NCBI GenBank assembly: GCA_963825025.1
Contig: CAWGRJ010000002.1
Span: forward strand, 1,218,497 to 1,282,496
DNA: 64,000 nt
Reading direction: 5' to 3'
Source: an uncultured Solirubrobacterales bacterium
GTDB lineage: Bacteria > Actinomycetota > Thermoleophilia > Solirubrobacterales > Solirubrobacteraceae
Shown here piece by piece: positions 170 to 23,941 of the stretch. Under the pieces are notes generated by a model. It was not told the origin of the DNA. It saw nothing but the letters and a program-made list of their open reading frames with translations, and made no database searches. How positions within the stretch are numbered: the first letter of the stretch is position 1; every line of letters begins with the position of its first letter. The position numbers were made by a program, and so were the translations under genes.

Positions 170-2116
170 GTGCCCTCGGGTCGCCAGCGATCTACGCTAA
201 CGCTCACCGTGACCATGCTTGCACCGGACGTTGAGATCGCAGTCGAGCTTGTCCGCCGGGCCGGGGTCGATAGCTGGGGGTGGCTGACGGAGGATCTGAT
301 GTGTCCTGCACCGCGTATCCATCAGAGCAATGCGGAGCGCGCAGATGACCTTGTCGCCTGGCTGGCGCCCTACGCCGACGCGCAGCCGAGCATGGTGCAG
401 GCGGCGGTCGCCAACTTCGCCCGCGTTCTTGCTGACCTCCTTCTCGTGCTTCATTACGACCTGGACGTCGATAGCCCGTACCTTCGCGTGCCTAAGTGGT
501 ACAGGCAGGAACCGCGGTCGGTGCGCGCGCACGAAGAGTGGGACATTCACGTCACGCTGCTTGGCAACCTGACTATCGAGTTCACGCGCGCCATCAATCT
601 CGTGATCGCTCGCGCTCAGCAGGCGGACCCAGGCGTCCTACAGCGACGGGCGTTGGCGGTTTGCGACTGCGGGCCGGCTCACGCGCCGCTGCGGGCCGTC
701 ACCTACACGACGGAGCAATCAGAACAAGCTCAGCCCTACCCCGGCCTCGCCGGATTCCCCTCGGTAGTGGCCGATCGGACCGTCGGTGGCCTCGGCGTTC
801 GCGAAGGCGACGTTCCGCGAACCGCTGACGAATTCGAGCGATGGATCGCCAACCTCATCGAACGTCGAGGCGCGTGCAGCGAGCCACCGCCAGCGTCGGC
901 GGGGTTGCCGCTCGTTCTACCGAAGCCGCCGCGCTCAGCGGACACCGAGGGCGTTCCACCCGTCTTGACGATCGTCAGCGCGATCGTGGCGTTCTGCGCG
1001 GCCGTGGGAGGTGTCCTCGCCTATCCCTGGCTGGCGGGCGCCGCGATCGTCCTCGTCGCGGTCGCGGTCGCCTTTAGGAGGCGCCTCTGGCGGTGGCCCG
1101 CTTCGCCGCTCGCCGTGCTTTGTTTTGTGGTCGCCGGGTGTGTCGGCGGCGGGATCGGCGAGCTTGCCGCCGCCGCCTTTGACGGCACCGAAAAGACCCC
1201 TCTCCACGGTCCACCGCTACGTCCCTCTTCTTCCGCGAACTACCGGCCCATTGGACAGATAGAACAGGGCGCCTTCTTCCGTGGGGGCGATGGTCCGGTC
1301 GCCGCGTTCTCCGACCCTGTGTCGGTGCTTGTTGGACGAGAGGTGAGATTGGGAGTCCGACTGATAAACGGCGGGCCCGACGAAATCCCCCAAGCGATTG
1401 TGAAGGTGACGGTCCCGAACGTCGCTGCCTCCTCGGAGGCCGTCACCGCCACTGTTCGATCAGAAGCGATGCGTCCGAGCGAAGTGGCTGACACCCTGAC
1501 GGTGAACATCGATGCGAACCGAAGCGCGTGTCTCCGCTACATCCCAGGCTCGACCCAATTTCTGGATTCGCGTCACGGCATCGTCCGATCGTTGCCCGAT
1601 GGAGTGTTCGGCAGCGGCGTTGCAGTGGGGCCACTGGGGTTGGTTCTGTCGAACGGTACGCGGTACGTGGTGTTCTCGGTGCGGGCGGTCGGCCTCGCCA
1701 GCGGATCGCGCTGCTCCTATGCGACCTCCCAGGTGACCCCTTCTACAACAGCCCCCAAGGCCGTCCCGAGTCCCCGGCCGGGCGATGGACATGATCTCAA
1801 GGAATCCGGCTGCCCTCCATCCGCAGAAAACGTACCGTGCACGACAGTCACACTGGAAAGGGAAAGCCTTACGCTCGCAACGGTTGGGCTGCGCTACTCC
1901 CCTGTGCGTGATACGACGTGGGGCATGGTCAAAGGTCTAGGCTCCGAACAGAAACTGCGGCTCGTCACTGAAGGCGGGACAGTGAGCTACGCGCGCTTGA
2001 GTCTTTCCAACACCAACGGTGACAAGTTTTTTCAGACGCATGGCTGCGTGCGCTCTATCCAAGTGACTGAGCACGACCGCAAGACGCTCGATCGCAAACG
2101 AGTCCGCTGCCCATAG
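170..2116 (+). CDS. hypothetical membrane protein (cytoplasmic N-domain, central TM block, large C-terminal extracytoplasmic region)
   Basis: 648-codon ORF (GTG 170; alternative ATG 215). Hydrophobic segments VLTIVSAIVAFCAAVGGVLAYPWLAGAAIVLVAVAVAF and LAVLCFVVAGCVGGGIGELAAAAF. No catalytic motif recognised. Confidence 0.55.
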   Translation: MPSGRQRSTLTLTVTMLAPDVEIAVELVRRAGVDSWGWLTEDLMCPAPRIHQSNAERADDLVAWLAPYADAQPSMVQAAVANFARVLADLLLVLHYDLDVDSPYLRVPKWYRQEPRSVRAHEEWDIHVTLLGNLTIEFTRAINLVIARAQQADPGVLQRRALAVCDCGPAHAPLRAVTYTTEQSEQAQPYPGLAGFPSVVADRTVGGLGVREGDVPRTADEFERWIANLIERRGACSEPPPASAGLPLVLPKPPRSADTEGVPPVLTIVSAIVAFCAAVGGVLAYPWLAGAAIVLVAVAVAFRRRLWRWPASPLAVLCFVVAGCVGGGIGELAAAAFDGTEKTPLHGPPLRPSSSANYRPIGQIEQGAFFRGGDGPVAAFSDPVSVLVGREVRLGVRLINGGPDEIPQAIVKVTVPNVAASSEAVTATVRSEAMRPSEVADTLTVNIDANRSACLRYIPGSTQFLDSRHGIVRSLPDGVFGSGVAVGPLGLVLSNGTRYVVFSVRAVGLASGSRCSYATSQVTPSTTAPKAVPSPRPGDGHDLKESGCPPSAENVPCTTVTLERESLTLATVGLRYSPVRDTTWGMVKGLGSEQKLRLVTEGGTVSYARLSLSNTNGDKFFQTHGCVRSIQVTEHDRKTLDRKRVRCP

Positions 2117-2355
2117 CTCAGCCATGTCGCGGGGTGTCCGCTGCTTGGCTCAGGAGGGACTGCTTGCGCCGCATCGGACACAACCGGCTACCGCCTGTGA
2201 AAGGGGCCTGCACCTCGGTCTAGCCCGGCCGGGCAGGAGGTCGGGGGGATCCGACGCCGAGCTGGCCGCCGTCAATCCAGGGTGACCACCTTCGTGCCGG
2301 GCGTGCCATCGGCTCGCTGAGGCTGGCCACAACTCGCGGGGGCGTGTGCGGCTGC

Positions 2356-2712
2356 TCAGAGACGAACGCCTCGCACGCGCCCGCGTATGCTACGGCCGAA
2401 CGTGTCCGGTGCGACGGTGAGAGATGCGAACAGGTCGAGCGCGCCCTGCGCGTAGGGTTTGCGCCGCTGGCCGCTCGGGGCTGCGGCGGCCGCTGGCAGC
2501 GGAACGCCGGCCAGGCGCGTGCTGGCCTGGATGTGGCGCCGCATCGCGTGCTCGTCGTCCAGGCGCACGCACTTGTGAAACAGACGGTGCGCCAGCGTGG
2601 AGCGCGGCGCGATCCCGGCCTCGTCGAGAACGAGCGCGGCGCTCAGGACGTTCTGCGCGAGGCGGGCACGGTCCTCGGCCTCGCGCAGCCTGGTTTCGAC
2701 CGTGGTCTGCAT
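2356..2712 (-). CDS. hypothetical protein (118 aa)
   Basis: Minus-strand ORF. Start trimmed to ATG 2712 (MQTTVETRLREAEDRARL...). The competing plus-strand ORFs are Arg/Gly-rich and look like shadows. No family recognised. Confidence 0.35.
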   Translation of the reverse strand: MQTTVETRLREAEDRARLAQNVLSAALVLDEAGIAPRSTLAHRLFHKCVRLDDEHAMRRHIQASTRLAGVPLPAAAAAPSGQRRKPYAQGALDLFASLTVAPDTFGRSIRGRVRGVRL

Positions 2713-2887
2713 GTTCTCGCAGGGTAGGCGCCGCGCGGATGACGCGCCAGGCGCGAGTGGTCGCGACGTATGATCCGTCCTTGCCGACCTGGACGGACGC
2801 GACATCGTCACCGATCACGCCGGTGAAAACCCGACCTGGCCGACTGGGCCCGCTTGGTCTGGACGCCGGTCGCGAGGACTGAGAGGG

Positions 2888-3544
2888 ATGCCCGACCCTT
2901 CCTTCCCTGTCGTGGTGTTCGATCTAGACGGGACGCTGCTGCGGGGCACAACCGTCTCGATGTTGCTGGCGCAGTGGCTCGGCCAGGCAGATGCGATCGC
3001 GGAGCTGGAGCGAGCGTTCAGTGCGCACGAGATCTCGAATCGTGTGGTGGCCGACAGCACGGCGGGTTGGCTTGCGGGTCAGAGCACCGCCGAGGCTTGG
3101 CGAGTGCTGGCGGAGGGCCGCTGGATTGACGGCATGGCGGAGACGTTCCAGGCGCTCCGCGCCGCTGGGTCGAGCCTCCTACTAGGCACGATCACATGGA
3201 GCTTCGCGGCTGAGATGTTGCGGGAGCGACATGGCTTCGCCGCAGTCAGCGGGACGCAGATCCAGGTGAGCAACGGAGTCGTGTCCGGCACAGTCAGCAG
3301 ATACTTCGATGAGCACGACAAGGTGCGCTTCGTCGAGGACTGGTGCCAACAGAACGGTTTCTCTATGAGCCAGGTAGCCGCGATCGGCGACTCCCGCTCG
3401 GACGTGCCGCTCTTTAGACGCACGGGCATGTCGATCGCACTGAACGCCACAGCCGACGCTCGGGCGGCCGCAGACCATGTGCTCGATACGGAGGATCTTC
3501 GGGACGTGCTGCCGCTCTTGCAGCCGGTCGGGCGAGATGCGTGA
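2888..3544 (+). CDS. HAD-superfamily hydrolase, subfamily IB (phosphoserine-phosphatase-like)
   Basis: Motif I VVVFDLDGTLL (DxDxT). Late motif AAIGDSRSDVPLF. GAGAGGG Shine-Dalgarno just upstream of ATG 2888. Confidence 0.8.
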   Translation: MPDPSFPVVVFDLDGTLLRGTTVSMLLAQWLGQADAIAELERAFSAHEISNRVVADSTAGWLAGQSTAEAWRVLAEGRWIDGMAETFQALRAAGSSLLLGTITWSFAAEMLRERHGFAAVSGTQIQVSNGVVSGTVSRYFDEHDKVRFVEDWCQQNGFSMSQVAAIGDSRSDVPLFRRTGMSIALNATADARAAADHVLDTEDLRDVLPLLQPVGRDA

Positions 3545-3676
3545 TGGTGCGGCGGTCAGCTGCAGCTCGTTCGCGCTGTGTGTAGATGACCCGCGAGGTT
3601 CACGTAGGTCTCGATGCCCCACCCGGCTGTGCGTCGCCTCGCCGCGTGAGCCTAAGATCGCCCTTGAGCAAGCGAT

Positions 3677-3934
3677 GTGCAGATCTGTCTCCGAGCGTGC
3701 ATGGATGAGATCCCTGGCAATCCCTTCCGCGGCGAGGACGCCCCCGAGCGTGCCTACCGGCACCTGCAGCGCTATCACGGCGTGGACCCGGGCGAAGCCT
3801 CGGACCGTTTGCATGCGATCAAGCAGCGTCATGGACTCGGCGCAGCCGAGAGAGTCGTGATCGAGAAAACCGGTGGAGTGCTCCCGGAGTCCAGCGGTGA
3901 GCTGCTGGGCTCCCTAACAATGAGAAGCACATGA
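3677..3934 (+). CDS. small protein translationally coupled to the downstream giant gene
   Basis: 85-codon ORF (alternative ATG 3701). Its TGA (3932-3934) overlaps ATG 3931 of the next gene (ATGA). The sequence ...RAYRHLQRYHGVDPGEASDRLHAIKQRHGLGAAERVVIEKTGGV... looks protein-like. Family not recognised. Confidence 0.5.
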   Translation: MQICLRACMDEIPGNPFRGEDAPERAYRHLQRYHGVDPGEASDRLHAIKQRHGLGAAERVVIEKTGGVLPESSGELLGSLTMRST

Positions 3935-6900
3935 GCGCCTGGTCCAGAGACATAGAGGCCCTTCTGGAGGCGGCGAAGCGGGTGGGAAGCGATCCCCCCG
4001 CGGAGGATGAGGCGCGGGGGGCCCTCGAGCAGCTGCTGGCACGCGACGAAGAGACGGTCCGGATGCTCGCGGGCGAGCTGAGCGGCAGTCGCGACCGCGA
4101 CGATCGGGCGCTCGCTGCGCGGCTGCTTGGCGCCCACCTGAGCGCGGCACGCCTGCAAGCGCTGTTGAGGCTCTTGGAGCATGAGCGTGATCAGGCTGTC
4201 CTCGCCACGATCGCCGAGGCACTTCAGCGCTATGAAGGCGAGCTGCCTATCGAGCAGCTCGAGATGCTCGCTAATCACGAGGACGACGAGCTCAGGCGAA
4301 TCGCCGCGGCACGGCTCTATGGGCGGGACGATCAGCGCACGCTCTCGCTGCTGCTTGGCCTAGTGGAGGACCCCGACCCCGATGTGGCGGGCTGGGCGGC
4401 CTGGGCGCTCGCCGACGGCTTCAAGCCCTCCGCCGATCGCGACCTCGCCCTGGAGCGCTGGCTTCGGCTGACCCCCGCCGGCTCGCAGCTGGCTACACAG
4501 GTCAAGAGGTCCCTGCAGGAGCAGGCGAGCGTCACGAGGCACCCGCGGGGGCGCTCGAGAACCCGCAGGCGCGACCGCCAAAGCCGCAAGGCGCCGGAGC
4601 GCCTGCTGGTACTCGTCACTTCCGCGAACCCGATTGACACCGGTCGCCTGGCGCTCGACGAGGAGGTCCGGGACATCACAAGCGGCGTGCGCGCCACGCC
4701 CGCACGCGATGTCGTTGACCTGCGCACGGCGTGGGCGGCGCGCCCGCTGGATCTCCTGACGGAGCTAAACGAGCACCACCCCGCAGTGCTGCATTTCAGC
4801 GGGCACGGCACGGCTGATGGCCGGCTGGTGTTCCTGGACGCGGCGGGCGAGGCCAAGCCAGTGGACGGCGAGGCGTTCGCGGCGAGTCTCGCCACCGCCG
4901 GGGGGAGCGTGCGTGTGGTCGTTCTGAACGCGTGCTTCTCGGCGGATCTGGCCAGATCACTTACGCAGTTCGTGGATGTTGCGGTTGGGATGGAGCGCCC
5001 TGTCGGCGACGTGGCCGCGCGGGTGTTCGCGCGAGCTTTCTACTCGGCGCTCGGCTTCGGGGTGTCGGTCGGCGGCGCGTTCGAGCAAGGGCGTGCGGCG
5101 CTCGCCCTCGAAGGCATGCCTGAGAAGGACATTGCACAGCTTTCCGCGCGCGTGGGGGTAGACCCACATGAGCTGGTGCTCGTGGACCCAGAGGCGGCAC
5201 GGCGCTACGTCCCGGCCAGCGATCAGGAGGTGCTGCGGCAGCGAACGCAAACCCATCTGGCCCACCTGGCCCGGCATGCGAGCTTGCCACTCGGGGACGG
5301 TCTCTGCATTCAGCGTGACGTCGGGGAGCCGCTCTCCCGCCGCGCACGGGAGGGTTCGATGCTGGTGGTCGGCGCGCCGGGATCGGGAAAGACGGGCGCT
5401 CTGCACTCCCTGGCGCTGGAGCTGATCGACGCTGGTCGGGACGTGGTCGTGCTGGCGGCGGACCTCCTGGGGGCGTCGGGGCAGAGCGGACTGCGCGAGG
5501 AGCTGGACCTTCAGCGAAACGTCTTTGACGCGCTTGCGGCGTGGCCTGGGGAGCAGCCCGGGTTCCTGCTGATCGACGCACTGGACGCCGCCCGTGGGCG
5601 CGAAGCCGCGACGGCGCTTCTTTCGCTGGTGGCGCAGGTAGCCGCGGATAGCCGCCGCTGGCATGTGATCGCCTCTGTCCGTTCTTTTGACCTGCGCCAC
5701 AGTCCTGAGCTACAGGACGCCTTCCCGGCCGACCCAGCCGACGCGGCGGATGGTTTCACCGACCCGGAGTTCACCTCGGTGCGCCATCTCGCTGTCGGCG
5801 CGCTCTCCGAGCGCGAGCTTGGGGTCGTGACACGCTCCTCACCGCCGCTCGCGGAGCTCCTGCAGGACGCGCCGCCGGCACTCGGTGTGCTGGCACGTTC
5901 CCCCTTGAACCTGCAGCTCTTGTGCAGCCTACTGGCGCGGGAGGGTGCAGGCCAAGAGCGGCTCTCGGCGCTGGGCACGCAGCTACAGCTGCTGGATCTC
6001 TACTGGGATCGCCAGGTGCTCTCCCCGGTACAAGGGCGCGATACACGACACGCGGTGTTGGTCAGGCTCTGCGAACTGGCCGTAAAGCGGATGCGCCTAC
6101 AGGTCCCGCGCACGGGAATGATTGAAGGACAGGGCGACGCGGAGGCGCTTGAGGAGCTCCTAGGGTGCGGCGTCCTGGTCGAGACTAGGCAGGCAACGGG
6201 CGGGAGCTCCGACGAGGTCGCGTTCGCCCACCACTTGCTGTTCGACTACGCGGTTCACCGACTGCTGCTAGACGGTGAGGACGACGAGGTCACCGCGCGT
6301 CTGCGGGACACCGAGGAGCTCGTGCTGCTGACCGGCCCGAGCCTCGTGCTCACGCTGCAAGCGAGGATCGCGGCGGACCCGAGCTGGAGCGCGTTCTGGA
6401 CGCTAGCGCTCAGACTCGCCGACCCGCAAGTACCTGCGCTTGCACGCCTAATCGCGCCCTCCGTGGCGGTCGAACATCTCCGCCAGCCGCAGGCATTCGA
6501 GCCTCTGCTTATCTCACTGGAGCGTGGCGAGCCGGGCGCGGCGTTCCTGTTGAGGCACATCGTGAGCGCCGAGACAGCGCGTGGGCGCCCGGCGCACCCC
6601 CTCGCCGACGCGGACCTTTCGCTGTGGAGCGCGCTGGCTGAGATGCTCGCACGGGAGGTGAGCAGCGAGAACGCTTACCCACTGCGGCTGCTGGTCTGGG
6701 GGCTCAGCATGGAGCTAGAAGATCTCAACCCCGTGCAGCTACAGCGCCTCGGGCGCGCCGCCCGCGCGCTGCTCGCCTGGGCCTGGGATCAGGCGACCGC
6801 TTCGTGGCCGGACGTACAGACTGGCATTGAGGCGGTCGCTCGCAGCTGCGCAAGCAACCCGCAGGCCAGCCGGGAGATACTCCTCCGAGCGCTGTCACCC

Positions 6901-9312
6901 GAGCGAGTCAGCGACCACGGCTACCTCGAGCTGTGGGCACTCGCGCAGGAGATCCGTTCACTGCTCAGCTGCGCGCCGGATCTCGTCAGCGAGCTCTACC
7001 GCACGGTGTTCGGGCGCGACGAGCCCTCGAAGGCACCGACTCCGCTTGGCACGGGGCAGATTCTGCGTCTTGCCAGTAACCGCCAGCAGGACTGGAATAT
7101 GATCCGCTACGTCCTGGCCGAGCAGTACCCGCTCGTGCTGGAGCGCGAGCCGGGCGTGGCCGTTCGCGCCGCCGGCGCGGCGTGCCTGCATGAGGGTGAG
7201 CGTTACGCGTGGAGCGTGCCCCGTGTCATGGAGACGTTCATGTTCCGAGAGCGCAAGACCGGGATGATTGATGACGGCAGTGAGTTCTGGGATTCGGGCG
7301 AGGGACTCGCTGACGATGCCGGCAGGCTGCTTGATGCCTTCCAGCAGACCCTTGTTGCGGCAGCGGGCGCCAGCGACACTGAGCGTGTCGATGCGTTTCT
7401 TGACGCGGTCGCGGGCGACCGTCATCCGGCCGGCATATTCCGGCGGCTGCTGCGCGCCGGAGCCGAGACCCCCGCGTTCTTCGCCGAGCCGCTCTTCGAA
7501 CTGGTCCGGGATCACGAAATCCTCACGGACATAAGCACCAGCGAGCCGGCCGGGGCGTTCCTAGCCGCAGCGTCCGGCTACTGGGATGAGCGTCAGCGCG
7601 CCGCCGTGGAGGAGGCGATCCTGCGTGTCCCGGACCGCTTCCCGGCCGACCGGAAGGAGGCGGGCCTGCATGCGCGCGACCGGCTGCTCGGATGCCTAGA
7701 CCATGAGCGGATCGTGACCGAGCAGGCGCGCGAGGTCCTTGAAGAGCTCAAGCTGGGAGAGGGGCCTCCGGCGAACATCGAGCCGCACCGCGTCAGCGTG
7801 GGCGCAGTCGCAGTTGACCCACTCGAAGAGATGCGCCGTCGCGGGATCGACCCAGACGCTTCGGGGAACGCGCGCCTGCTGTCCATGATCGCGCCAGTGA
7901 GCGAGTTCGTCGGGACCCACGCGAACTCGCCGCCCTCGCCGGAGCAGGCCGATGCCGCGGTCAAGGCGATCCGGGCGTTGCGGGCAGGACGCATCGACCT
8001 GCAGGGCGAGTGCGACCCCGTGCTACTGGCGGAAGCGGAGGCGTGGCTCTCTGACGCCGCCGCCACGCTGGCCGCCCAGACACCGTTGTCCGGGTCGCGT
8101 GCGAGCGTGCGGCTCGCGCGGGAGCTCGCCATTGACGGCAGGGATGGGGTCCTCCCCAGCGTCGACGCCGACACAGACCCGGAGGGCTTTGAGAGCTTCC
8201 CGCACTGGTCGGTCCCCTCCGGACGTGTGGGGGCCGCGCGGGCGCTCCTGTTGCTCACCAGGGAGCCGGCGCTAACCGACGCCGAGGTCCTGTCCGCGAT
8301 CGGCAACCTCGCGCTGGACCCGGCACCGGCTGTCCGGTTGAACGTCGCGAGGCTGCTCGGGCTCGCAAGAGCGAGCGATCCGGAGTGGGCGTGGGCGCTG
8401 ACGCGGCAGATCGCCGAGCACGAGAGCAGCGGCCAGGTACTACAGACGCTGCTCAGTGCGCTGGTGGGTCTTGCCCGCGAACAGCCGGCCAGAGCGTTTG
8501 ACCTCACGGAGGAGATCTACGAGCGTGAGCTCGCGGGCCCACGGCGCGAGTCGCTACTCAGCGGCGCCGCCGGCTTGCTGATCGACGGCTGGATCTGGGA
8601 GGGACACCCAGCTGGCCGCCGGGTCATCGACGGTTGGCTGACGGACCCTGGAGCGAACGCCGCCAGCGCACGCAGCGTTTTCTTCCGGTTGCGGAAGCCC
8701 GTTACGGCGGGCGATGACACGCTCGCGCAGATCGCGGTCCGCCAACGCGCGATCGGCGTGTGGGCGGACCTCACCAGGGCAGCTTGGGACGCCTTTCAGG
8801 CGGTCGGCCCCGTACCCCTCGAGCAGGACGTGCCTGCGCTACGTGGGCTAGCCCAGCTGCTGGACGCCTCGGCAAGTGAGCTGTATTTCGCCTCGGGAGC
8901 GTACGGCGAGCAGCAGCCCGAGCGGGGCGAGCGGCTGCCGCCACGCGTGCGGCGCCGCTTCTATCGCGAGGGCGAGGCGATGATCGAGGTGCTCACCGCG
9001 GCGGGGGTCCCGTCGGTCGCCCACCGGGTGCTGCAGACGCTCTCGACCTACGTGCAGGATGACCCGCGCGGCGTGCTGCTTCGGATCGGACGGCTGCTGC
9101 AGGCAGGAAGGGCGTGGGGCTACCAACTAGAGAGTCTCGCCGAGGCCGAGTTCGTCGCGCTTGTCGAGCGTTATCTGGCCGCGCACAGAGACCTGTTCCT
9201 GCGCGACCGTGAGTGCCGGGAGGTGCTCGTAGGAGCGCTTGAGGGCTTCGTGGAGGCGGGCTGGCCGAGTGCGCGGCGGATGATGTATGGCCTGGACGAC
9301 ATGTTCCGCTAA
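3931..9312 (+). CDS. 1,793-aa multidomain protein: HEAT-like repeats, caspase/CHAT-like domain, P-loop (STAND-type) NTPase, long helical/HEAT-like C-terminal region
   Basis: HEAT-like repeats, e.g. DDELRRIAAARLYGRDDQRTLSLLLGLVEDPDPDVAGWAAWALAD. His-Cys dyad context LHFSGHG (H292, nt 4804-4806) and VRVVVLNACFS (C335, nt 4933-4935). Walker A GAPGSGKTG (nt 5371-5397) and Walker B-like FLLIDALDAAR. More than 1,100 aa of helical repeats follow, including NLALDPAPAVRLNVARLLGLARASDPEWAWAL. Confidence 0.85.
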   Translation: MSAWSRDIEALLEAAKRVGSDPPAEDEARGALEQLLARDEETVRMLAGELSGSRDRDDRALAARLLGAHLSAARLQALLRLLEHERDQAVLATIAEALQRYEGELPIEQLEMLANHEDDELRRIAAARLYGRDDQRTLSLLLGLVEDPDPDVAGWAAWALADGFKPSADRDLALERWLRLTPAGSQLATQVKRSLQEQASVTRHPRGRSRTRRRDRQSRKAPERLLVLVTSANPIDTGRLALDEEVRDITSGVRATPARDVVDLRTAWAARPLDLLTELNEHHPAVLHFSGHGTADGRLVFLDAAGEAKPVDGEAFAASLATAGGSVRVVVLNACFSADLARSLTQFVDVAVGMERPVGDVAARVFARAFYSALGFGVSVGGAFEQGRAALALEGMPEKDIAQLSARVGVDPHELVLVDPEAARRYVPASDQEVLRQRTQTHLAHLARHASLPLGDGLCIQRDVGEPLSRRAREGSMLVVGAPGSGKTGALHSLALELIDAGRDVVVLAADLLGASGQSGLREELDLQRNVFDALAAWPGEQPGFLLIDALDAARGREAATALLSLVAQVAADSRRWHVIASVRSFDLRHSPELQDAFPADPADAADGFTDPEFTSVRHLAVGALSERELGVVTRSSPPLAELLQDAPPALGVLARSPLNLQLLCSLLAREGAGQERLSALGTQLQLLDLYWDRQVLSPVQGRDTRHAVLVRLCELAVKRMRLQVPRTGMIEGQGDAEALEELLGCGVLVETRQATGGSSDEVAFAHHLLFDYAVHRLLLDGEDDEVTARLRDTEELVLLTGPSLVLTLQARIAADPSWSAFWTLALRLADPQVPALARLIAPSVAVEHLRQPQAFEPLLISLERGEPGAAFLLRHIVSAETARGRPAHPLADADLSLWSALAEMLAREVSSENAYPLRLLVWGLSMELEDLNPVQLQRLGRAARALLAWAWDQATASWPDVQTGIEAVARSCASNPQASREILLRALSPERVSDHGYLELWALAQEIRSLLSCAPDLVSELYRTVFGRDEPSKAPTPLGTGQILRLASNRQQDWNMIRYVLAEQYPLVLEREPGVAVRAAGAACLHEGERYAWSVPRVMETFMFRERKTGMIDDGSEFWDSGEGLADDAGRLLDAFQQTLVAAAGASDTERVDAFLDAVAGDRHPAGIFRRLLRAGAETPAFFAEPLFELVRDHEILTDISTSEPAGAFLAAASGYWDERQRAAVEEAILRVPDRFPADRKEAGLHARDRLLGCLDHERIVTEQAREVLEELKLGEGPPANIEPHRVSVGAVAVDPLEEMRRRGIDPDASGNARLLSMIAPVSEFVGTHANSPPSPEQADAAVKAIRALRAGRIDLQGECDPVLLAEAEAWLSDAAATLAAQTPLSGSRASVRLARELAIDGRDGVLPSVDADTDPEGFESFPHWSVPSGRVGAARALLLLTREPALTDAEVLSAIGNLALDPAPAVRLNVARLLGLARASDPEWAWALTRQIAEHESSGQVLQTLLSALVGLAREQPARAFDLTEEIYERELAGPRRESLLSGAAGLLIDGWIWEGHPAGRRVIDGWLTDPGANAASARSVFFRLRKPVTAGDDTLAQIAVRQRAIGVWADLTRAAWDAFQAVGPVPLEQDVPALRGLAQLLDASASELYFASGAYGEQQPERGERLPPRVRRRFYREGEAMIEVLTAAGVPSVAHRVLQTLSTYVQDDPRGVLLRIGRLLQAGRAWGYQLESLAEAEFVALVERYLAAHRDLFLRDRECREVLVGALEGFVEAGWPSARRMMYGLDDMFR

Positions 9313-9369
9313 GAGGCGAGGCGCCGAGCGGCAACCAACGGCGTTATCGCGTGGATGCCGGCTCCACAT

Positions 9370-9388
9370 GTTGGGCCCCGTGCCCAAC
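9370..9388 (+). terminator. short GC hairpin downstream of the giant gene (weak terminator candidate)
   Basis: GTTGGGC-cccgt-GCCCAAC, 7-bp stem, 58 nt after the TAA at 9310-9312. No T-run. Confidence 0.3.
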
Positions 9389-9816
9389 GCGCCCACCCCT
9401 GCGCGCGAAGCGTCACCCCAACGCTACGGATTTTTCCTTCTCTCCAGCTGTGCGCTGGTCGGGATCGCCAGCGACCCACCATTCGCTCCAGTGAGTGAAG
9501 GGCTCGGTCACGATCTCATTGTCTCGCGCAGCAATCTTGGGTGCGGCGTAGCGCACTCGCGGGCCACGCTGAGGTCAAGGGCGTGGAGCCTCGTCTTCTC
9601 GCGTCTGCCGCCTGAGTGCCCGGGGCCGGTGGTTGGCTATCCGGTGGGCGATCACGGGGCCGTGTGGCGCGTCGTCAGGGCGCACAGCACCGAACCCCGG
9701 CGCAAAAGGCCGCGCCGGGGCCAGTGCAAACCGCCGCCCCCAGCGTGGGGGGCACCGCGCAACCGCCTGGCGGGGCACCGTGTTGCCCAGGCTTGGGCCG
9801 CAGCTTGTCTCTGTGG

Positions 9817-10122
9817 TCAGGCGACCCAGCGGGCGTCTGCCAGCTCGTGCTTGTACTTGCCGGTGGCTAGGTAGGCGTGCAGGCGCCGCCCTGCGGCGAG
9901 GGGGCGGATCTTGCCCGCCGCTTGGTTGGGAGTCCGTGCCTCGGTCGCGTAGACCTCGCAGTAGCCTGGGTCTTCTGGAGAGACGGTCGGGTCGGTGGCG
10001 AACACCAGGTATCCGCGGCGGCGAGCTCGCTCCGCGTTGGTCTTGGCGATCCGCTCGTTCTCCTGCTCGAGCTCGCGAGCCCACGCGAACAGGTCGATCT
10101 GGGTGTCGGTGGCTGATGGCAT
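9817..10122 (-). CDS. hypothetical protein (101 aa) downstream of res
   Basis: ORF on the same strand as mod-res, 73 nt after the res stop (MPSATDTQIDLFAWARELEQENERIAKTNAERARRRGYLVFATD...). No family recognised. Confidence 0.45.
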   Translation of the reverse strand: MPSATDTQIDLFAWARELEQENERIAKTNAERARRRGYLVFATDPTVSPEDPGYCEVYATEARTPNQAAGKIRPLAAGRRLHAYLATGKYKHELADARWVA

Positions 10123-10195
10123 GGATCAGGGCCCCTGCATTAGAGCTTAGGGCTATCTTGCCACCGGGTTGGGACGGTACTCTCGCGCGGGCTTA

Positions 10196-12802
10196 TCACG
10201 TGTCCTTGCTGCCCGCGGCGATGAAGCGCCGTAGTCCGTCGAGATCCTGGCCGGTGTAGGCGTCGAACGTCTGCTGGACGACCTTCTCGTAGGCCCATTC
10301 GCGACCGGCGAGGCGGGTTGAGTCCGCGCACCAGCGACGAGCCCGGCGGTCCTTGAGCGCAACGTCGAGATCCTCCTGGCCCTTCGTCTCGACGATCAGA
10401 CACGTGTCGTCGGTCATGCGCACGACGAAGTCCGGGTAGTAGTAGCGCAGCGCGCCCGCCTTTGAGATGTACTCCAGCGCGAAGCGGCTGTTCATCGTGA
10501 GCTTGGCCCACGCCGCGACGTCGGTGGCCCGATCGAGGAAGCTCGCGAAGCGGGCCTCCAGGGCGTTGTCGACGGGCGTGACGTTGAACACCGTGTGCTT
10601 GCCATCCACGGTCTGACGAGACCAGGGGAACGGTGGGGTCTGGGACAGCCGAAAGGCGTTCTCGGTGATTGTTGGCTCGCGCTCGGTGATCGCCAGCGCA
10701 CGGATGGCCTCGCCGAATGCGTTCGCGACGAGTGCTTGTGCGTCGTTCTCGGCCAGTCGGCGCAGGATGACCTTGTCGTCAAGCTCTACGGTCCGCTCGA
10801 ACACGCGGTCCTTGAGGTAGTCGCGGACCATCGGGGCGAGCGTGGCGAACGCTCCGGATAGCCGGTCGACTCCGCCGGCCTTGGCAGCGCCGCGGGTGTA
10901 GTAGGTGATGACGCCGGAGGGGTCTTCGGCGTAGGGAACGTGGAACTCGTACTCCTCGATGATGCCCTTCTCGATCAGGTGCATGCCGCGGTAGTGGACG
11001 TACTCGTCGGGTTGGATGTCTGGGATCGCAAGCCGGTGCTTTGGGTCGGGCACGTCGGCTGGATTGAGTTGATTCAGCGCGCTGTCAGATCGCGCCAGGG
11101 CGCGTGTCAGCTGTGGGATGACGATGTCGTAGCGGCGCTTTGCCTCGTCGGGGAAGATGGTGAGCGCCCCAGTCTCGATCTTGTCGGCGTCCTTTCGTTC
11201 CACGATAAGCCCGCCGTCGAGCTCGGTGCTCCAGAGCTGGCGGAACGCCTCGTGCTCGATGACGACCACGCGCTCGTCAAAGCCCGATCCTGGTGGGGTC
11301 ATTCGCCGCAGGCCACGACCCAGGGCTTGCTCGGGGAGGATCCTGTTCGCGGCCGTGAGCGCTCGCAATGTGACGATCACGCACACGTTGCGCACGTCCC
11401 AGCCCTCTCGGAGCATGAGAACGCTGACGATGCAGCGGATGTGACTGTCGGGCTGGTCGACCTCGCGTGCCGCGCGGCGGGCCAGATCGAGGTCATCCTT
11501 GGTGATCTCACCCGAGCGGGTCGTATGGATCACAAGCAGCTGGTCCCCTGCGAAGTCAGGGAGCTGCCGCAGATAGTCACCAGCCTCATCGGCAGCCAAG
11601 GTGTTCTCGCACATCACGAACAGCACCGGGCGCTTCCCCGACGGTGAGAGAGACTCGTGGAACTTTCGCCAGCGCCCGACCGCGACATCAAGCCACTGGC
11701 GGTTGCGCTGAAAGGAGCTATCGCCCAACTCGACCTCGGCGCCCTTGACCTCCCCGATCACGGGGGTCTTGACAATCCCGTCGGTCACCGCCTGGGCGAG
11801 CGGGTAGTCCACCACTACATGGCGAAACATTCCGCCCTTCTCGTGCTTCGGGGTAGCGGAGAAGTCCAGCTGAGAGACCACGCCAGCATCGCGATCATCC
11901 GCCGCGCGTTTGCGTAGCTCGTCGTGGAGACGCTCGATCGTCTGGTTCCACTTCAGTTTCTCGTCGTGGACGTGGTGTGCCTCGTCGTTGAGGACCATGA
12001 CGCGTCCGCGCTCCGCGATCCCATCGAAGAGACGCTCAGCGGAAGATGCGTCCACGTCGCGGTTGACTCGCGGACCGACCATCGCCTCCACGGGGTTTGG
12101 CGCGTTCTTCGCGTTGCCGCGGCCGGTGGGTGTCTCATACAGCCGTTGGATGTTGGTGAGGTAGAGCGCCCCGCGAGCCGTCACAGGGGAAGGGTCGTCC
12201 TGAAGGAGCACGGCGAGATCGAAGTCATGTGCCCACTCGGGCGGGACCAGTGGATCGCGACGGAACGTCGCTCCATCCCCGAAGTCGCTCTTCAGACGCT
12301 CGAACACGATCAAGTTCGGTGCGATCACGAGGAACGAGGTGGTCATCGGCGAGTCGGACTCGTACAGCGAGTGGAAGTAAGACCACACGATGCAGAGGCT
12401 CATCGCCAATGTCTTGCCCGACCCCGTCGCCATCTTCATCGCCAACCGCTGGCGCTTGGGTTCGCCGGGCTGGAGAGTCATCCCGTGCTCGGCGAACTCA
12501 AGGAGATCCTTCAGCGCGTGTACCGGCTCGATCTCGGTCAGGAAGATGAATGTCTCAACGGCCTCGCGCTGGCAGAAGTAGAAACGGAACGGTTGCCCAT
12601 CTTCGGAGCGATGCTCATCGGCAAACCAGAAACCAAGCAGGCGCCGAGAAGTGGCTGAGGTGACACCAGGGTAGTTCTGCGCGCGCCAGGCGTCCACGCG
12701 TGCTCTAACTCCGTTGACGGCATACGTTGCTTCGCTGGGTTTACGTCGCTCGGGAACGGCGTAGGGGTCGCCAGACGGAGCTGTGGGCTCCTCCGGACTC
12801 AC
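10196..12802 (-). CDS. res: Type III restriction enzyme, Res subunit (SF2 helicase plus C-terminal PD-ExK nuclease)
   Basis: Walker A MATGSGKTL. Motif II VLNDEAHHV (DEAH). C-terminal YYYPDFVVRMTDDTCLIVETKG (PD...ExK). The GTG start at 12802 overlaps the mod stop (GTGA). Confidence 0.9.
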   Translation of the reverse strand: MSPEEPTAPSGDPYAVPERRKPSEATYAVNGVRARVDAWRAQNYPGVTSATSRRLLGFWFADEHRSEDGQPFRFYFCQREAVETFIFLTEIEPVHALKDLLEFAEHGMTLQPGEPKRQRLAMKMATGSGKTLAMSLCIVWSYFHSLYESDSPMTTSFLVIAPNLIVFERLKSDFGDGATFRRDPLVPPEWAHDFDLAVLLQDDPSPVTARGALYLTNIQRLYETPTGRGNAKNAPNPVEAMVGPRVNRDVDASSAERLFDGIAERGRVMVLNDEAHHVHDEKLKWNQTIERLHDELRKRAADDRDAGVVSQLDFSATPKHEKGGMFRHVVVDYPLAQAVTDGIVKTPVIGEVKGAEVELGDSSFQRNRQWLDVAVGRWRKFHESLSPSGKRPVLFVMCENTLAADEAGDYLRQLPDFAGDQLLVIHTTRSGEITKDDLDLARRAAREVDQPDSHIRCIVSVLMLREGWDVRNVCVIVTLRALTAANRILPEQALGRGLRRMTPPGSGFDERVVVIEHEAFRQLWSTELDGGLIVERKDADKIETGALTIFPDEAKRRYDIVIPQLTRALARSDSALNQLNPADVPDPKHRLAIPDIQPDEYVHYRGMHLIEKGIIEEYEFHVPYAEDPSGVITYYTRGAAKAGGVDRLSGAFATLAPMVRDYLKDRVFERTVELDDKVILRRLAENDAQALVANAFGEAIRALAITEREPTITENAFRLSQTPPFPWSRQTVDGKHTVFNVTPVDNALEARFASFLDRATDVAAWAKLTMNSRFALEYISKAGALRYYYPDFVVRMTDDTCLIVETKGQEDLDVALKDRRARRWCADSTRLAGREWAYEKVVQQTFDAYTGQDLDGLRRFIAAGSKDT

Positions 12803-14715
12803 TTGATACGAACCTCAGCCAGCTTGGTCGTGTCGTTGCCGAAGATGTCGATGATCTTCACGATGATCGAGTAACGGCCCGCCTTCGGATACTCATGCCA
12901 TTCGCTCTGCGTCGCGAGCGCTGGCTCCTCCCTTGTCCGGTACGCCTGCCACTGGTTATGAAATACCTCGTCACTGAAGTCGTAGTCCACCGACCAGTAG
13001 TCGATGAGATCAGACCACGAGGTGATGCTCTCACGCACCTTCGGCGGGATCAGCTCCTCGCTCGGAATGGCGAAGTCCTTGAGCACCACACACGCCTCCC
13101 GACCTTGGCGACGCACATCGAGATCGACAAATGCAAGGTCGAAGAACCGCACCGCATCCGCCTCCGTCACCTGACGCTCCATCACCTCCCGGGGAATCTG
13201 TCGTGGCCGGACATCCAGGCCGCGACGCCTCGCATTCTCGGAGATCGTGTCATGGAGCCCCATCTCCCACTCCCAGCCCAGCAGATCGCACGACTCGATG
13301 CCGTTGTCGGCCATCTCATCCATCACGTTTTCGGTCTCGTCGATCGTCACCGGCGCGTCAGTGGCCCCGACATGGACCATGCGATTGGCCTTGCGACCGT
13401 GGAGGTGCTCAAAGCCCTCAACGGGCTCTGCGTTATAGAACGCCAAGATCGTGTCGAGATAGGCACGCAGCACGCCGTTGCCAGACTCGATCTGCCACCG
13501 CTGCCGCTCGTAAGCGCCCAGATTCTTGATGTCGAACGGACGGCAGTCGGGGATGTTCAGGAGTCGCTTACGGGTAGTGTGAACAGCGAAACGGCCGAGA
13601 TCGCACGCAATCCAGCGCCGGCCGAGCTTCTCGGCGACTGCTGCGGTTGTTCCGGAGCCGCAGAAGAAGTCGGCGACAAGATCACCTGGATTGCTTGCCA
13701 GCTTGATGATGCGTTCCAACAACAACTCGGGCTTCTGAGTGTCGTAGCCCAACCGCTCGATAGCCTGCGAATTGATCGGCCGAATATCGGTCCAGACATC
13801 GCCGAGCGGACGTCCCCGCGAGTCTTCGAGATAGCGCTTTAGCTGGGGCACGCTACCCGGCTTCGTTTGCACGACCAGACCCGCGTCGTAGGCAGCTTGC
13901 ATCCGATCCTGAGTCCATCGCCATACACGCGTAACACCTAGAAACTCGTACGTGAGATTCGGTCTGTTTGGATTGGGGTTGGTGAGGTCGCTCAGTCGAT
14001 AGATGCGACCATCCTGGTCCTGGTGGGTGTACTTGCCGCCGGTCTTCTCGTCCAGGTTGTCCAAGTCGTACGGCTGAAAGACTGCGTCCTCGTTCCACGC
14101 AGAGGTCGGCCCCCTACGGTAGGCAAAGATCACGTCGTGGTTATTGGGGAGCCGGGTTGTCATGAGGCTCTTGGAGAGCGTTCGCTGCCAGACGATCTCA
14201 TTAGAGAAAGCATCGGATCCAAATATCTCGTCACAGACCAGCTTTACGTAGTGACTGACATTCGACCCAATGTGCAAGAAGAGCCAACCATCGTCTGCCA
14301 GGAGCTCATGGATCAGTGTGAGCCGTTCATAGACCATGCGAAGATATGAGGACCGACCGCTGCCCCACGTGTCTCGATAAGCGTGCTCTTCGAGCACCGA
14401 CGGTGCCTTCGTCCAGTCAGCATCGCCAACCTTTACGCGGAACGAGAAGTCAGCGCCTGTGTCGAAGGGCGGATCAATGTAGACGAGCTTCACCTGCCCC
14501 GCGTATTCCTCTAGCAAGCTGCTCATCACCAACTTGTTGTCGCCCCAGATGAGCGAGTTCCGCTCGCTTGCTTGGGTGCCGCTGCCGCCGAACAGCGCGC
14601 CCGTGTCCCGCTCACGAGTCGCTCTGGACTCGTTGATGGTCTCAACGGTCTGGAAGGGCAGGTGGAACCGCTCGACGTGCTCCGGCTTGCCGTCCCACTC
14701 AAGGCGTACGGTCAC
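12799..14715 (-). CDS. mod: Type III DNA methyltransferase, Mod subunit (beta-class N6A/N4C MTase)
   Basis: Motif IV VYIDPPFDTGADF lies before motif I FFCGSGTTAAVAEKLGRRW. N-terminus MTVRLEWDGKPEHVERFHLPFQTVETINE is typical of Mod proteins. 4-nt overlap with res. Confidence 0.9.
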   Translation of the reverse strand: MTVRLEWDGKPEHVERFHLPFQTVETINESRATRERDTGALFGGSGTQASERNSLIWGDNKLVMSSLLEEYAGQVKLVYIDPPFDTGADFSFRVKVGDADWTKAPSVLEEHAYRDTWGSGRSSYLRMVYERLTLIHELLADDGWLFLHIGSNVSHYVKLVCDEIFGSDAFSNEIVWQRTLSKSLMTTRLPNNHDVIFAYRRGPTSAWNEDAVFQPYDLDNLDEKTGGKYTHQDQDGRIYRLSDLTNPNPNRPNLTYEFLGVTRVWRWTQDRMQAAYDAGLVVQTKPGSVPQLKRYLEDSRGRPLGDVWTDIRPINSQAIERLGYDTQKPELLLERIIKLASNPGDLVADFFCGSGTTAAVAEKLGRRWIACDLGRFAVHTTRKRLLNIPDCRPFDIKNLGAYERQRWQIESGNGVLRAYLDTILAFYNAEPVEGFEHLHGRKANRMVHVGATDAPVTIDETENVMDEMADNGIESCDLLGWEWEMGLHDTISENARRRGLDVRPRQIPREVMERQVTEADAVRFFDLAFVDLDVRRQGREACVVLKDFAIPSEELIPPKVRESITSWSDLIDYWSVDYDFSDEVFHNQWQAYRTREEPALATQSEWHEYPKAGRYSIIVKIIDIFGNDTTKLAEVRIK

Positions 14716-15017
14716 GGGGCCTCGTCGACGAGGACGCTGGCCGGGGGGGACGAGGAGCGCGGAGCGGGCACGGGCGACATCTTTGCGAGCACGTCGGTCG
14801 TACGGATGCCGTGCGGCCGAAGCAGCACGCCGCGAGCAGGCTCAAGCACGGTCAGGGCGAAACCGGGTCAGCGACCGGGTGGCCACCCTGCCGCTACCGA
14901 AGTTGACCCGGGAGTACCGAGGAACCAGGGTGGGCACGTGAGAGCGAAACTCGTGCGCTGATTGTTCCGTCTGCCGTAGGACGTACGAATACAGGGCTGC
15001 CATGCGTTCGCAGCTTC

Positions 15018-15064
15018 CCCGCCAGGCGAGGCTTCGTCACCCTCGCCTGGCGGGTCCGGTTTTT
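15018..15064 (+). terminator. intrinsic-terminator-like hairpin plus T-run in the mod / GRDP-like divergent intergenic region
   Basis: CCGCCAGGCGAGG (15019-15031), 9-nt loop, CCTCGCCTGGCGG (15041-15053), then gtccgg and TTTTT (15060-15064). No obvious upstream plus-strand gene to terminate. Confidence 0.4.
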
Positions 15065-15179
15065 GACGTCCGGGCTCTCTGATTGTCTATGCGAGGACGG
15101 TTAGCGGTTGACCCCGCAGAGCGATGTCCGTCTACGCGAACGTAATCGAAGCAGCATCGGCACCAGGAGGTGCTCATCC

Positions 15180-15656
15180 ATGTCTACCGTCTTGACGAGC
15201 CCCATGAACGCCAGCGATGCGCTGGCCCGCCTCGATGAGGTCCTCGACCTCGGCAATATCCGTTCCAAGCTCGCCGATCCCGAGGAGGGCAAGGGCTATG
15301 GACAGGCGGTACTAGACCTCATGGAGGCCGAGTACCGCAAGTTCCTGGCGATGCACCTCGCGCATCCAGAGTCCGAAGTCGTGCCCTGCAAACTCGTCGA
15401 TGAGATGTGGCATCAGCACATCCTCGACACAATCGCCTACCGCGAGGACTGCGAGACCATCTTCGGTGGCTTCCTCGACCATTTCCCCTACTTCGGCATG
15501 AGGGGCGAGGAGGACGCCGAGGCTCTCGCCGACGCCTACCGGGACACGCTTGATATGTACGAACGGGACTTCGGCACCCCGCCTGAAGGGACCTGGATCT
15601 CGGCGGACGCCGCGAAGTGCAGCCGCACCAACTGCAAGCCAACGAAGTGTAAATAG
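15180..15656 (+). CDS. GRDP-like (DUF1399-like) protein with Cys/Lys-rich C-terminal tail
   Basis: AGGAGG at 15165-15170, 9 nt before ATG 15180. Motif VDEMWHQHILDTIAYREDCETIFG resembles the glycine-rich-domain-protein family core. Tail AAKCSRTNCKPTKCK. Confidence 0.7.
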   Translation: MSTVLTSPMNASDALARLDEVLDLGNIRSKLADPEEGKGYGQAVLDLMEAEYRKFLAMHLAHPESEVVPCKLVDEMWHQHILDTIAYREDCETIFGGFLDHFPYFGMRGEEDAEALADAYRDTLDMYERDFGTPPEGTWISADAAKCSRTNCKPTKCK

Positions 15657-17076: not shown

Positions 17077-17178
17077 TCCTCCGTTCGGTGACGTTCAGGC
17101 CGCGTGGAAAAGCGGGCCCTATATGGAGGACTGCGAGCTGGCCCTCGCGCGCGACAGCCAATTTGCGCGCCGGCCCGC

Positions 17179-18876: not shown

Positions 18877-18916
18877 CGTCGTGGATTCCTTTCCAAATCC
18901 GGTGGGTCGCTGGCTC

Positions 18917-20326: not shown

Positions 20327-20621
20327 GCGAGCAGCACCCTCCGGGAGACAACGAATTCCCTCCGAGCAGCCTCCAGCGAACCCTCCGAAAACGGAGCAGC
20401 AGTGGGCTGATCGCCTTTTGCGCGCGCTGGCTTCATAGACGTCCCCTTACCTACCTAACTCTTTTCGGCAAGTTGGACTTCCAGCCTGACCCACGGCTGG
20501 ACGCGCACACCATCGCCCGCTCCAAACCCACGGCACACGCGCCCGCCGCATGGGCTCGTCGGCGCTCCCGTAGTCAACGCGGCCGTCTGCCCGGGGAGGC
20601 CCTGCGGATAGGGTTTCGCGC

Positions 20622-21192: not shown

Positions 21193-21202
21193 CAGCCTCG
21201 AT

Positions 21203-22862: not shown

Positions 22863-22970
22863 CGGCGCAACGGCTTACGGTTACAGGACAACCAACATAC
22901 GCACACCCCGCCCACCTTCAGCCCAGGATGCACAGTTGACACATACCTGCATCACTACGGACCGCAACCT

Positions 22971-23741: not shown

Positions 23742-23941
23742 CTCTATTCCCCTTTTCCCGGTTTCATGAACTCGGCTCCCGCCCGCGGGCAAGCAGCGAC
23801 GCTTCACCCGCCTAAAGGTGAAGTGCTGCAATCCTGCGAGTTAGGTGCTTTGGTCTGGTTCGCGCGGCTCGTCTCGCTTAGACCGCCGCCGCCACAGAAT
23901 CGCGTTGACGGCACACACGTCTAACTGGCCGACCGGACGGG

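Follow-up and report, generated by a model that had tools for sequence, protein, structure and literature searches.

An RHS-type toxin domain encoded with a HEAT-CHAT-STAND protein: a candidate toxin-bearing conflict module in Solirubrobacterales

Bacterial STAND and NLR-like receptors are usually described as single polypeptides in which the N-terminal enzyme is the effector. A more recent finding is that some STANDs work as proteases, with a zymogen or a pore-former as substrate. The locus considered here lies in a 64,000-nucleotide stretch of DNA from an uncultured Solirubrobacterales bacterium (contig CAWGRJ010000002.1 of assembly GCA_963825025.1), which is called the window throughout. 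It consists of a small gene (3701-3934, + strand) encoding a free-standing 77-residue homologue of an unnamed C-terminal domain of RHS polymorphic toxins, and of a giant gene (3931-9312, +) encoding a protein of 1,793 residues that is composed of a HEAT domain, a basic linker, a CHAT protease domain, a STAND NTPase module and a C-terminal body of the PDC-M54A family. The locus is a protease-armed STAND-type conflict system, a variation on the known protease-armed STAND defense, and the two genes probably form an anti-phage conflict module.

Several described systems resemble parts of this arrangement. Pepco is a small protein whose gene precedes that of an Avs4 fused to a protease and which turns toxic on cleavage (Evans et al. 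2025, PMC12642450), and the related layouts of the EACC1 and NucA-peptidase systems have been predicted by Kaur et al. (2020, PMC7159879). In the SAVED-CHAT system, the protease is activated by oligomerization and cleaves an operon partner; the cA3-activated filament uses the catalytic dyad H375/C422 (bioRxiv 10.1101/2023.06.23.546230). In polymorphic-toxin proteins the C-terminal tip is the toxin, and Imm-HEAT is a recognized though minor immunity class of these systems (Zhang et al. 2012, PMC3482391). Finally, the PDC systems are phage defense candidates, chosen for the occurrence of their members inside BREX, DISARM or Type I restriction-modification (R-M) systems; among them, PDC-M54 is a two-gene cassette, FAM_02606>>FAM_00589, seen 54 times (Payne et al., bioRxiv 10.1101/2024.01.29.577857). 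A literature search for 'PDC-M54' returned no paper.

The toxin domain, its immunity genes and the HEAT domain

Both genes had been delineated by a first-pass annotation made from the sequence, as a GTG-initiated open reading frame (ORF) of 85 codons (3677-3934, +) followed by an ATG-initiated ORF of 1,793 residues (3931-9312, +). Both ORFs are present in the window, and they share an ATGA at 3931-3934 (+), in which the start of the giant gene (ATG, 3931-3933) lies over the stop of the toxin gene (TGA, 3932-3934). The true start of the small gene is almost certainly ATG 3701, since all its homologues begin there and gene calls in public contigs use the same codon, which gives a predicted product of 77 residues (MDEIPGNPFRG...). 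The annotation had also regarded the two genes as a coupled unit, and homologous loci bear this out. The pair is conserved across them, the 4-nt overlap recurs in L003, L005, L006, L007 and L008, and the two-gene unit stays constant while its flanks vary from locus to locus.

The nature of the small protein is revealed by its relatives. A metagenome scan seeded with it yielded 51 loci, and the giant protein is encoded downstream of it in only 4 of these. In the remaining loci, the domain of ~75 residues forms the extreme C-terminal tip of larger ORFs in which Pfam recognizes RHS repeats, with RHS_repeat E-values of 5.3e-70 in L052, 4.5e-46 in L047 (2,063 residues, with FG-GAP and DUF6531), 1e-38 in L046 and 5.8e-25 in L061, which carries RHS and NHL repeats. 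In L038, RHS_repeat is followed by a PT-HINT domain at residues 635-765 (7.3e-19) and then by the toxin-tip domain at residues 768-842. The 77-residue protein begins at an IPGxPFxG junction, as the domain does after PT-HINT in RHS proteins. Because its start coincides with this junction, the small protein is equivalent to the toxin module of RHS proteins without the rest of the polypeptide. The assignments of domains and homology made for both proteins of the locus carry very little doubt.

Within the small-protein family, R36, H38, K41, T57, G58, V60, G70 and L72 are invariant or nearly so. The same residues, together with L37, are conserved to ~100% in STAND-linked and RHS-linked copies alike, and H21, H26 and E67 are conserved to 100% in the STAND-linked ones. 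Since every conserved core residue is retained, the STAND-linked copies look active. A profile search with the small protein gathers 88 clusters, all of 54-134 residues and none with a Pfam domain, and the protein itself has no match in Pfam (the best being ANTAR at 0.18, with matches considered to E≤1), PADLOC or NCBIfam. It is hydrophilic (grand average of hydropathy, GRAVY, -0.72), with no transmembrane or amphipathic pore-forming features, and an AlphaFold2 (AF2) model with a mean predicted local distance difference test (pLDDT) score of 83.7 consists of two helices and a beta-hairpin. Tox-REHH (STox_30) was considered as an identity and rejected. That toxin is described with conserved R46, H52, E53, H102 and H121 spanning more than 75 residues and with Imm22, SUKH, CdiI-like or Imm24 partners; the small protein has the order H21, H26, R36, H38, K41, T57, E67 within 77 residues, so that motif order, spacing and immunity families all differ and the published description of Tox-REHH sets it apart. 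The C-terminus of RhsA is likewise unrelated to the toxin profile. In a neighbor-joining tree of the 75-residue toxin domains, the resolution is too weak to claim a single capture event.

The genes downstream of the RHS-linked copies can be expected to encode immunity proteins, and many of these immunity-type ORFs begin right against the toxin stop codon or overlap it. In 27 loci, the gene directly downstream belongs to one family of ~80 residues (72-94), without a Pfam match, with the signature KYDHVFAIIRxD...AExEVxRLNxLN...Y.Q.TRL; examples are found in L021 (3208-3468), L030 (2994-3233) and L039 (7235-7474). It presumably represents an immunity family not described before, and it recurs in L055, L056, L058 and L071 as the N-terminal part of a protein of ~301 residues. 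In a second sub-branch of the toxin, a DUF4279 protein (Pfam 7.9e-21) lies downstream in five loci (L051, L053, L060, L062 and L065). One toxin family therefore seems, by sequence, to pair with at least two unrelated immunity families. At E≤1, the 64-kb window contains neither of them, nor does any HEAT-CHAT-STAND locus, and the possibility that the giant protein or another part of the window conceals a canonical immunity family was rejected at that threshold.

The position held by the start of the immunity gene in RHS loci is occupied here by the start of the N-terminal HEAT domain of the giant protein (PBS/YibA-type, residues ~31-190; 4021-4500, +), which is proposed to be a fused immunity or docking domain. 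N-terminal HEAT repeats had been noticed in the first-pass annotation and are well supported, by Pfam HEAT_2 (1.5e-10) and by PDB matches to alphaRep and YibA. A family profile built from the giant protein together with its homologues recovers from the PDB alphaRep binders at up to 4e-25, YibA (1oyz) at 4.5e-8 and MTH187; in NCBIfam, the best match of the domain is PRK09687, of the YibA family (1.7e-7), and a BLASTP comparison with E. coli YibA gives 3e-10 at 26% identity. The domain is acidic, with an isoelectric point (pI) of 4.8. In E. coli K-12, yibA itself lies 20 nt downstream of rhsA.

The presence of the HEAT domain and that of the toxin gene go together. The toxin gene lies directly upstream, usually with the 4-nt overlap, in all 10 intact HEAT-bearing loci found via the giant protein (those named being the window, L002, L003, L005, L006, L007, L008, L011 and L020) and is present in none of the 3 HEAT-less CHAT-STAND loci (L013, L018 and L019), where no toxin gene is detected even at E≤10; the Fisher exact test gives p of about 0.0035. 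Homologues thus keep the small partner, as the annotation would have it, wherever the HEAT-bearing locus is intact. L014 was left out of this count as a decayed copy (3771-11837, in an Actinomycetes metagenome-assembled genome, MAG): there is no toxin gene, the giant gene has lost its initial 89 residues, and it contains an insertion of ~3 kb at residue ~1190 and several frameshifts. No toxin gene is found at distant PDC-M54A loci either. Because it stands in the immunity-gene position, is of YibA/Imm-HEAT type and strictly co-occurs with the toxin, the N-terminal HEAT array is best read as a fused keeper of the toxin, equivalent to an immunity protein, and is probably not a second sensor.

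Domains of the giant protein

HEAT and CHAT are separated by a linker (residues 196-222, QEQASVTRHPRGRSRTRRRDRQSRKAP; 4516-4596, +) with a pI of 12. Its sequence is unconserved, yet it is Arg/Lys-rich in every homologue; over the linker and its flanks (aligned residues 176-232), each homologue has 7-15 Arg and Lys residues. This basic, disordered segment is a candidate cleavable tether.

The linker leads into a short CHAT (caspase-fold) cysteine-protease domain (residues 223-425; 4597-5205, +) with its dyad at H292 (4804-4806) and C335 (4933-4935). The motifs on which the annotation had based its domain calls, LLVLVTSANP...LHFSGHG and VRVVVLNACFS in this domain and GAPGSGKTG and FLLIDALDAAR in the NTPase, all sit at the residues given for them. 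The assignment to the caspase/CHAT type holds, through a Pfam match of the isolated domain and through alignment of its dyad with that of SAVED-CHAT. The isolated domain (residues 215-430) matches PF12770 at 7.2e-10 (39.2 bits, for a cutoff of 24). A Pfam scan of the whole 1,793-residue protein detects no CHAT or Peptidase_C14 at E≤1, a false negative given the isolated-domain match and a warning for the automated annotation of giant multidomain proteins. The domain is a short form of ~200 residues that covers positions 123-250 of the 289 in the Pfam profile. All short CHAT relatives aligned with it match Pfam CHAT (43 of 43), and a 57%-identical homologue (P0123) does so at 1.5e-12.

Comparison of the CHAT-domain profile with the PDB brings out one solved relative, 8tl0 ('CHAT domain-containing protein', 496 residues, 7 chains), at 1.2e-30, in which HFIGHG and VVLNAC align with HFSGHG and VVLNAC of the giant protein. 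The His-Cys spacing in the 8tl0 chain is 47 residues, the same as that of H375/C422 in SAVED-CHAT, and we infer that 8tl0 is the SAVED-CHAT protein of the preprint cited above. Conservation was assessed across 27 full-length or nearly full-length homologues, in which the dyad is invariant: H292 is present in 26 of 26 (one sequence being truncated) and C335 in 27 of 27. The annotation had gone further and cast the protease as the effector of the system. A CHAT-type His-Cys domain is indeed present but, because the small partner is an RHS toxin C-terminal domain, it is probably not the terminal effector and more likely the trigger that releases or activates the toxin.

The STAND NTPase module follows (residues ~465-780; 5323-6270, +). 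It comprises a nucleotide-binding domain (NBD), with Walker A GAPGSGKTG (K487, 5389-5391), Walker B LLIDALD and R584, then a helical domain and a winged helix. K487, D552, R555 and R584 are each conserved in 27 of 27 homologues and D549 in 26 of 27. An AF2 model of residues 430-900 (pLDDT 88, predicted template-modeling score, pTM, 0.86) displays the alpha/beta NBD, the helical domain and the winged helix. Foldseek searches of the PDB with this model place NLRC4 at the top (2.7e-10, TMq 0.58-0.61), with top hits between 1e-10 and 1e-8, and further matches include NOD2, NLRP9, Avs4 (8dgf), NLRP3, Apaf-1, ORC/Cdc6 and MalT. The model and its match to NLR and Avs4 modules substantiate the earlier proposal of a STAND-type NTPase. 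Curated STAND sequence models stay below threshold (nSTAND3 0.0087, nSTAND_NTPase5 0.028, NPHP3_N 0.15), and relatives of the protein give weak NACHT (4.9e-4) and AAA_16 matches.

The remaining ~1,010 residues (6271-9309, +) form a PDC-M54A-specific C-terminal body, presumed to be the sensor, which ends in an invariant YGLDDMFR. The PADLOC model PDC-M54A has 1657 positions, of which 271-1657 match residues 429-1793 at 2e-286; positions 1-270 are unmatched, and HEAT and CHAT are found in their place. The profile search of the PDB reveals no solved relative of the body beyond the NTPase. The annotation had described HEAT-like helical repeats at this end too, and hence HEAT arrays on both sides of the protein. 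The N-terminal array stands, and the C-terminal one is not confirmed: the body is helical where it was modeled (to residue 900), but no repeat family is significant.

The PDC-M54A family is large. An exhaustive HMMER search with residues 430-1629 returns 1,934 clusters at 50% identity, 1,065 of them at E≤1e-30. Most members have ~1,650 residues, with the matching part beginning near residue 280, and among the representatives (P0248-P0389) 117 of 127 share a common, unannotated N-domain of ~280 residues. This canonical N-domain has no Pfam or PDB match; GxxYQ and D...(Q/E)VK motifs, recognized by eye, suggest a PD-(D/E)xK-type nuclease. It is exchanged in rare cases for Trypsin_2, Peptidase_C14, a full-length CHAT (3.6e-32), a DUF676-type alpha/beta-hydrolase or an HNH-like domain, a swapping of effectors on the same pattern as in Avs and other defense STANDs. 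Members of HEAT-CHAT form make up a small branch of the family, which counts five representatives in the HMMER search and, at 90% identity, ~27 clusters. The carriers of this form among species-representative genomes are Solirubrobacterales, Conexibacteraceae, Egibacteraceae and other Actinomycetota MAGs. The second gene of the cassette, PDC-M54B, is not found in the small ORF, in the window ORFs at 170-3860 and 9287-14715, or among the neighbors of five canonical PDC-M54A homologues.

Some of the wider family's loci deserve mention in their own right. Beside a canonical PDC-M54A homologue in L010 lie, at 10660-16367 (-), a gene for a 1,402-residue SIR2_2 and HEAT protein, with LmuA and ThsA-like PADLOC matches, and one for an SLFN/AlbA_2 protein, a defense-island context for the wider family. 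In L015, a PDC-S05 candidate (7396-8457, +; 3.7e-157) directly follows a Chloroflexi PDC-M54A homologue. The IMG/VR viral contigs L073 (1391-5440) and L074 (6661-10710) encode distant PDC-M54A-type proteins of 28% identity; these are the only PDC-M54A-type genes detected in viral contigs, and neither has the HEAT-CHAT form. Together with the neighbors of L018 (below), they suggest that some PDC-M54A-type members may ride on prophages or satellites.

Proposed mechanism and alternative readings

The following mechanism is proposed. The first gene would supply the warhead of an Rhs-type polymorphic toxin at its mature size, 77 residues. At rest, this co-translated toxin would be bound and neutralized by the HEAT domain. 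Recognition of a phage-derived cue by the C-terminal body would lead the NTP-bound STAND module to oligomerize, and the CHAT domains would be brought together and activated, as in SAVED-CHAT filaments. CHAT would then cut the linker tether or the HEAT domain or, alternatively, the conserved tail of the toxin, and the freed toxin would arrest or kill the infected cell. Taken as a whole, a HEAT-held toxin freed by a STAND-activated CHAT is a serious possibility that falls somewhat short of an even chance. More tentative is the broader view of the giant protein as an NLR-like receptor with a non-covalently docked polymorphic-toxin warhead, a fused HEAT immunity domain and its own caspase-like protease as releaser. 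On this view, an Rhs toxin/immunity cassette would have become joined in frame to a CHAT-STAND gene, giving rise to a protease-gated toxin-immunity switch.

Several observations weigh against this proposal. The toxin module has no fold or sequence match to any characterized toxin, and its AF2 model finds nothing better than E 1.4 in the PDB and BFVD. A HEAT immunity gene is present in 0 of the 47 RHS-linked toxin loci; the idea that the RHS-linked copies also use HEAT immunity proteins was rejected on this count, and the HEAT pairing is therefore without independent precedent for this toxin. As binding scaffolds, HEAT/PBS repeats are generic, and the likeness to YibA lies at the level of the repeat family. 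The HEAT-less comparison group is of only three loci. As for the defense role of PDC-M54, it has candidate status.

The alternative that survives best makes the small protein a CHAT substrate, inert until trimmed, for example at its LGSLT tail, with a HEAT domain that docks the substrate without inhibiting it. Such a scheme has a precedent in Pepco/Avs4, where a small gene likewise lies directly upstream of a protease-fused STAND, and SAVED-CHAT and Craspase both cleave operon partners. The co-occurrence of HEAT and toxin would fit docking as well, and the C-terminal motif of G70, L72 and T73 is conserved; that tail, however, is equally conserved in the RHS-linked copies, which have no CHAT partner. 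Moreover, the 77-residue protein is a bare toxin module with no extra autoinhibitory segment, and the same module has a dedicated immunity gene in RHS loci and is presumably active as made. Activation by trimming is accordingly regarded as unlikely. The fused immunity-like HEAT domain points instead to release from an inhibitor rather than to zymogen cleavage.

A second alternative keeps CHAT as the terminal effector, degrading host or phage proteins, and makes the small protein a regulator or adaptor, such as a minimal DNA-binding or sensor-assisting subunit, that is no longer a toxin. CHAT-STAND apparently works alone in the HEAT-less relatives, which lack the small partner, and other family members have a trypsin or a caspase as their sole N-terminal domain. 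The profile of the small protein shows weak similarity to helix-turn-helix (HTH) regulators among PDB sequences (AsnC, E 0.12), but this is not significant and Foldseek finds nothing, and a winged-HTH identity was dropped. All RHS-toxin core residues are kept in the small protein, and the scheme would leave unexplained why it is strictly paired with a HEAT domain of YibA type at the place of the immunity gene, so that this second scheme is rather improbable. Least probable of all is a role in interbacterial conflict or addiction, as an island-stabilizing toxin/immunity cassette or a HEAT-based guard against incoming toxins: although the toxin family otherwise serves RHS-mediated competition, the loci adjoin RHS genes, transposases, integrases and HicAB, and the phage role is itself deduced, a STAND-protease fusion of 1,793 residues goes far beyond the needs of immunity or addiction, the small protein lacks any domain for secretion or trafficking, the STAND body family is flagged for embedding in BREX, DISARM or Type I R-M, and the effector swapping of PDC-M54A is typical of anti-phage STANDs.

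If release of a HEAT-held toxin proves to be correct, the locus would represent a third solution among STANDs, in which a ready-made Rhs toxin is held by the immunity domain of the receptor and a caspase-like protease serves as the release trigger. Polymorphic-toxin/immunity cassettes would then have been recruited into intracellular immunity, linking interbacterial weaponry with anti-phage immunity. A bacterial CHAT protease would gain a defined, testable substrate and read-out, a new toxin family of ~75 residues and two immunity families would be defined, and the large PDC-M54A family of STAND candidates would receive its first functional handle.

Genomic surroundings and relation to described systems

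The giant gene is convergent with a Type III R-M operon (10196-14715, -), consisting of res (10196-12802) and mod (12799-14715), which is regarded as context. The res stop lies 884 nt from the giant-gene stop, within the 1 kb that the annotation had stated; the operon matches Pfam ResIII and N6_N4_Mtase and the PADLOC models REase_III (9.4e-23) and MTase_III (1.8e-119). The setting as a whole is typical of defense or mobile-element regions, as had been supposed. Across loci, the neighbors of HEAT-CHAT-STAND genes include integrases, transposases, HicAB, TIR_2, HNH, PLD, FokI-like and RHS genes. An ORF of 195 residues (9287-9874, +), which the public contig (L001) has as a predicted gene, overlaps the final 26 nt of the giant gene; it was considered as a member of the system and rejected, having no Pfam or PADLOC match and not being conserved downstream of homologues. 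On the other side, a 648-residue ORF (170-2116, +), upstream of a HAD hydrolase gene (2888-3544), has no Pfam or PADLOC match.

Further along, the GC content is 0.59-0.65 at ~10-30 kb of the window, against 0.68-0.72 elsewhere, and most large ORFs of this part are without a Pfam match. The window also encodes a Trans_reg_C regulator (22971-23831, -), an AAA_16 ATPase (31210-32253, -) and an IS66 transposase (38812-40320, +). The segments at 10000-30000 and 38812-40320 look like a variable, island-like region. Two of the HEAT-less loci have surroundings of their own. In L013, a 478-residue protein with an HTH and an ImmA/IrrE-type peptidase is encoded (4375-5811, +) upstream of the Egibacteraceae CHAT-STAND gene; it matches PD-Lambda-2_B at 8.6e-22, is RmrA- and CapH/CapP-like, and may be a damage-responsive regulator of the CHAT-STAND system. 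The CHAT-STAND gene of L018 lies beside integrase, ParB-methylase and terminase genes.

The arrangement had been thought to be unnamed. Its parts have known relatives: the NTPase and body belong to PDC-M54A, and the small partner is an RHS toxin domain. In comparison with PDC-M54, the giant protein has the same STAND NTPase and C-terminal body of ~1,000 residues (residues 429-1793) and differs in having HEAT, linker and CHAT where the profile has its first ~270 positions, and an RHS-type toxin module as its partner. Avs1-4 and bNACHT proteins share with it the tripartite logic of an effector at the N-terminus, a STAND ATPase in the middle and a sensor at the C-terminus, with interchangeable N-terminal domains, and the fold of the NTPase module matches those of Avs4 (8dgf), NLRC4 and NOD2. 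By sequence, Avs models give no significant match to the giant protein (the best being Avs2, E 0.064, 8.9 bits); the latter also differs from Avs proteins in its extra HEAT domain, its separate toxin gene and a body that has no solved relative.

Pepco, EACC1, MBL and alpha/beta-hydrolase modules likewise place a small effector gene directly upstream of a protease-fused STAND, with the protease gating lethality. The small protein of the present locus differs from Pepco and EACC1 in being an RHS toxin tip and not a beta-barrel former or of pore type; as for kinship with them, it has no Pfam match, in a copy of Pfam for which the presence of Pepco and EACC1 models is unconfirmed. No paper was found that describes a fused immunity domain holding an Rhs-type toxin in a STAND protein, and Pepco, EACC1 and NucA-peptidase systems have no such domain. 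Among solved structures, the protease domain has its nearest relative in SAVED-CHAT, from type III-B CRISPR (8tl0), which has the same dyad motifs. The sensor sets it apart, together with TPR-CHAT/Craspase, being a cA3-binding SAVED domain or a crRNA complex where the present locus has a STAND ATPase. In CalpL-CalpT-CalpS and in type II toxin-antitoxin systems, a protease removes an inhibitor and an effector is freed, which is conceptually the step proposed here; their sensors, proteases and effectors are different.

Rhs toxin/immunity pairs, such as rhsA-yibA and those with Imm-HEAT, show the same order, with the toxin first and a binding partner that starts on the toxin stop, and the same YibA-type HEAT. 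The toxin of the present locus differs from theirs in that it stands alone, lacking an RHS shell as well as PAAR, LXG or any other part for trafficking. Its immunity-like domain is fused to a protease-STAND protein, and the usual immunity proteins of this toxin family are unrelated to HEAT. In sum, the STAND body is a member of an already catalogued candidate family, the small partner is an Rhs-type toxin module, and the N-terminal HEAT array is best read as a keeper of that toxin fused to the receptor.

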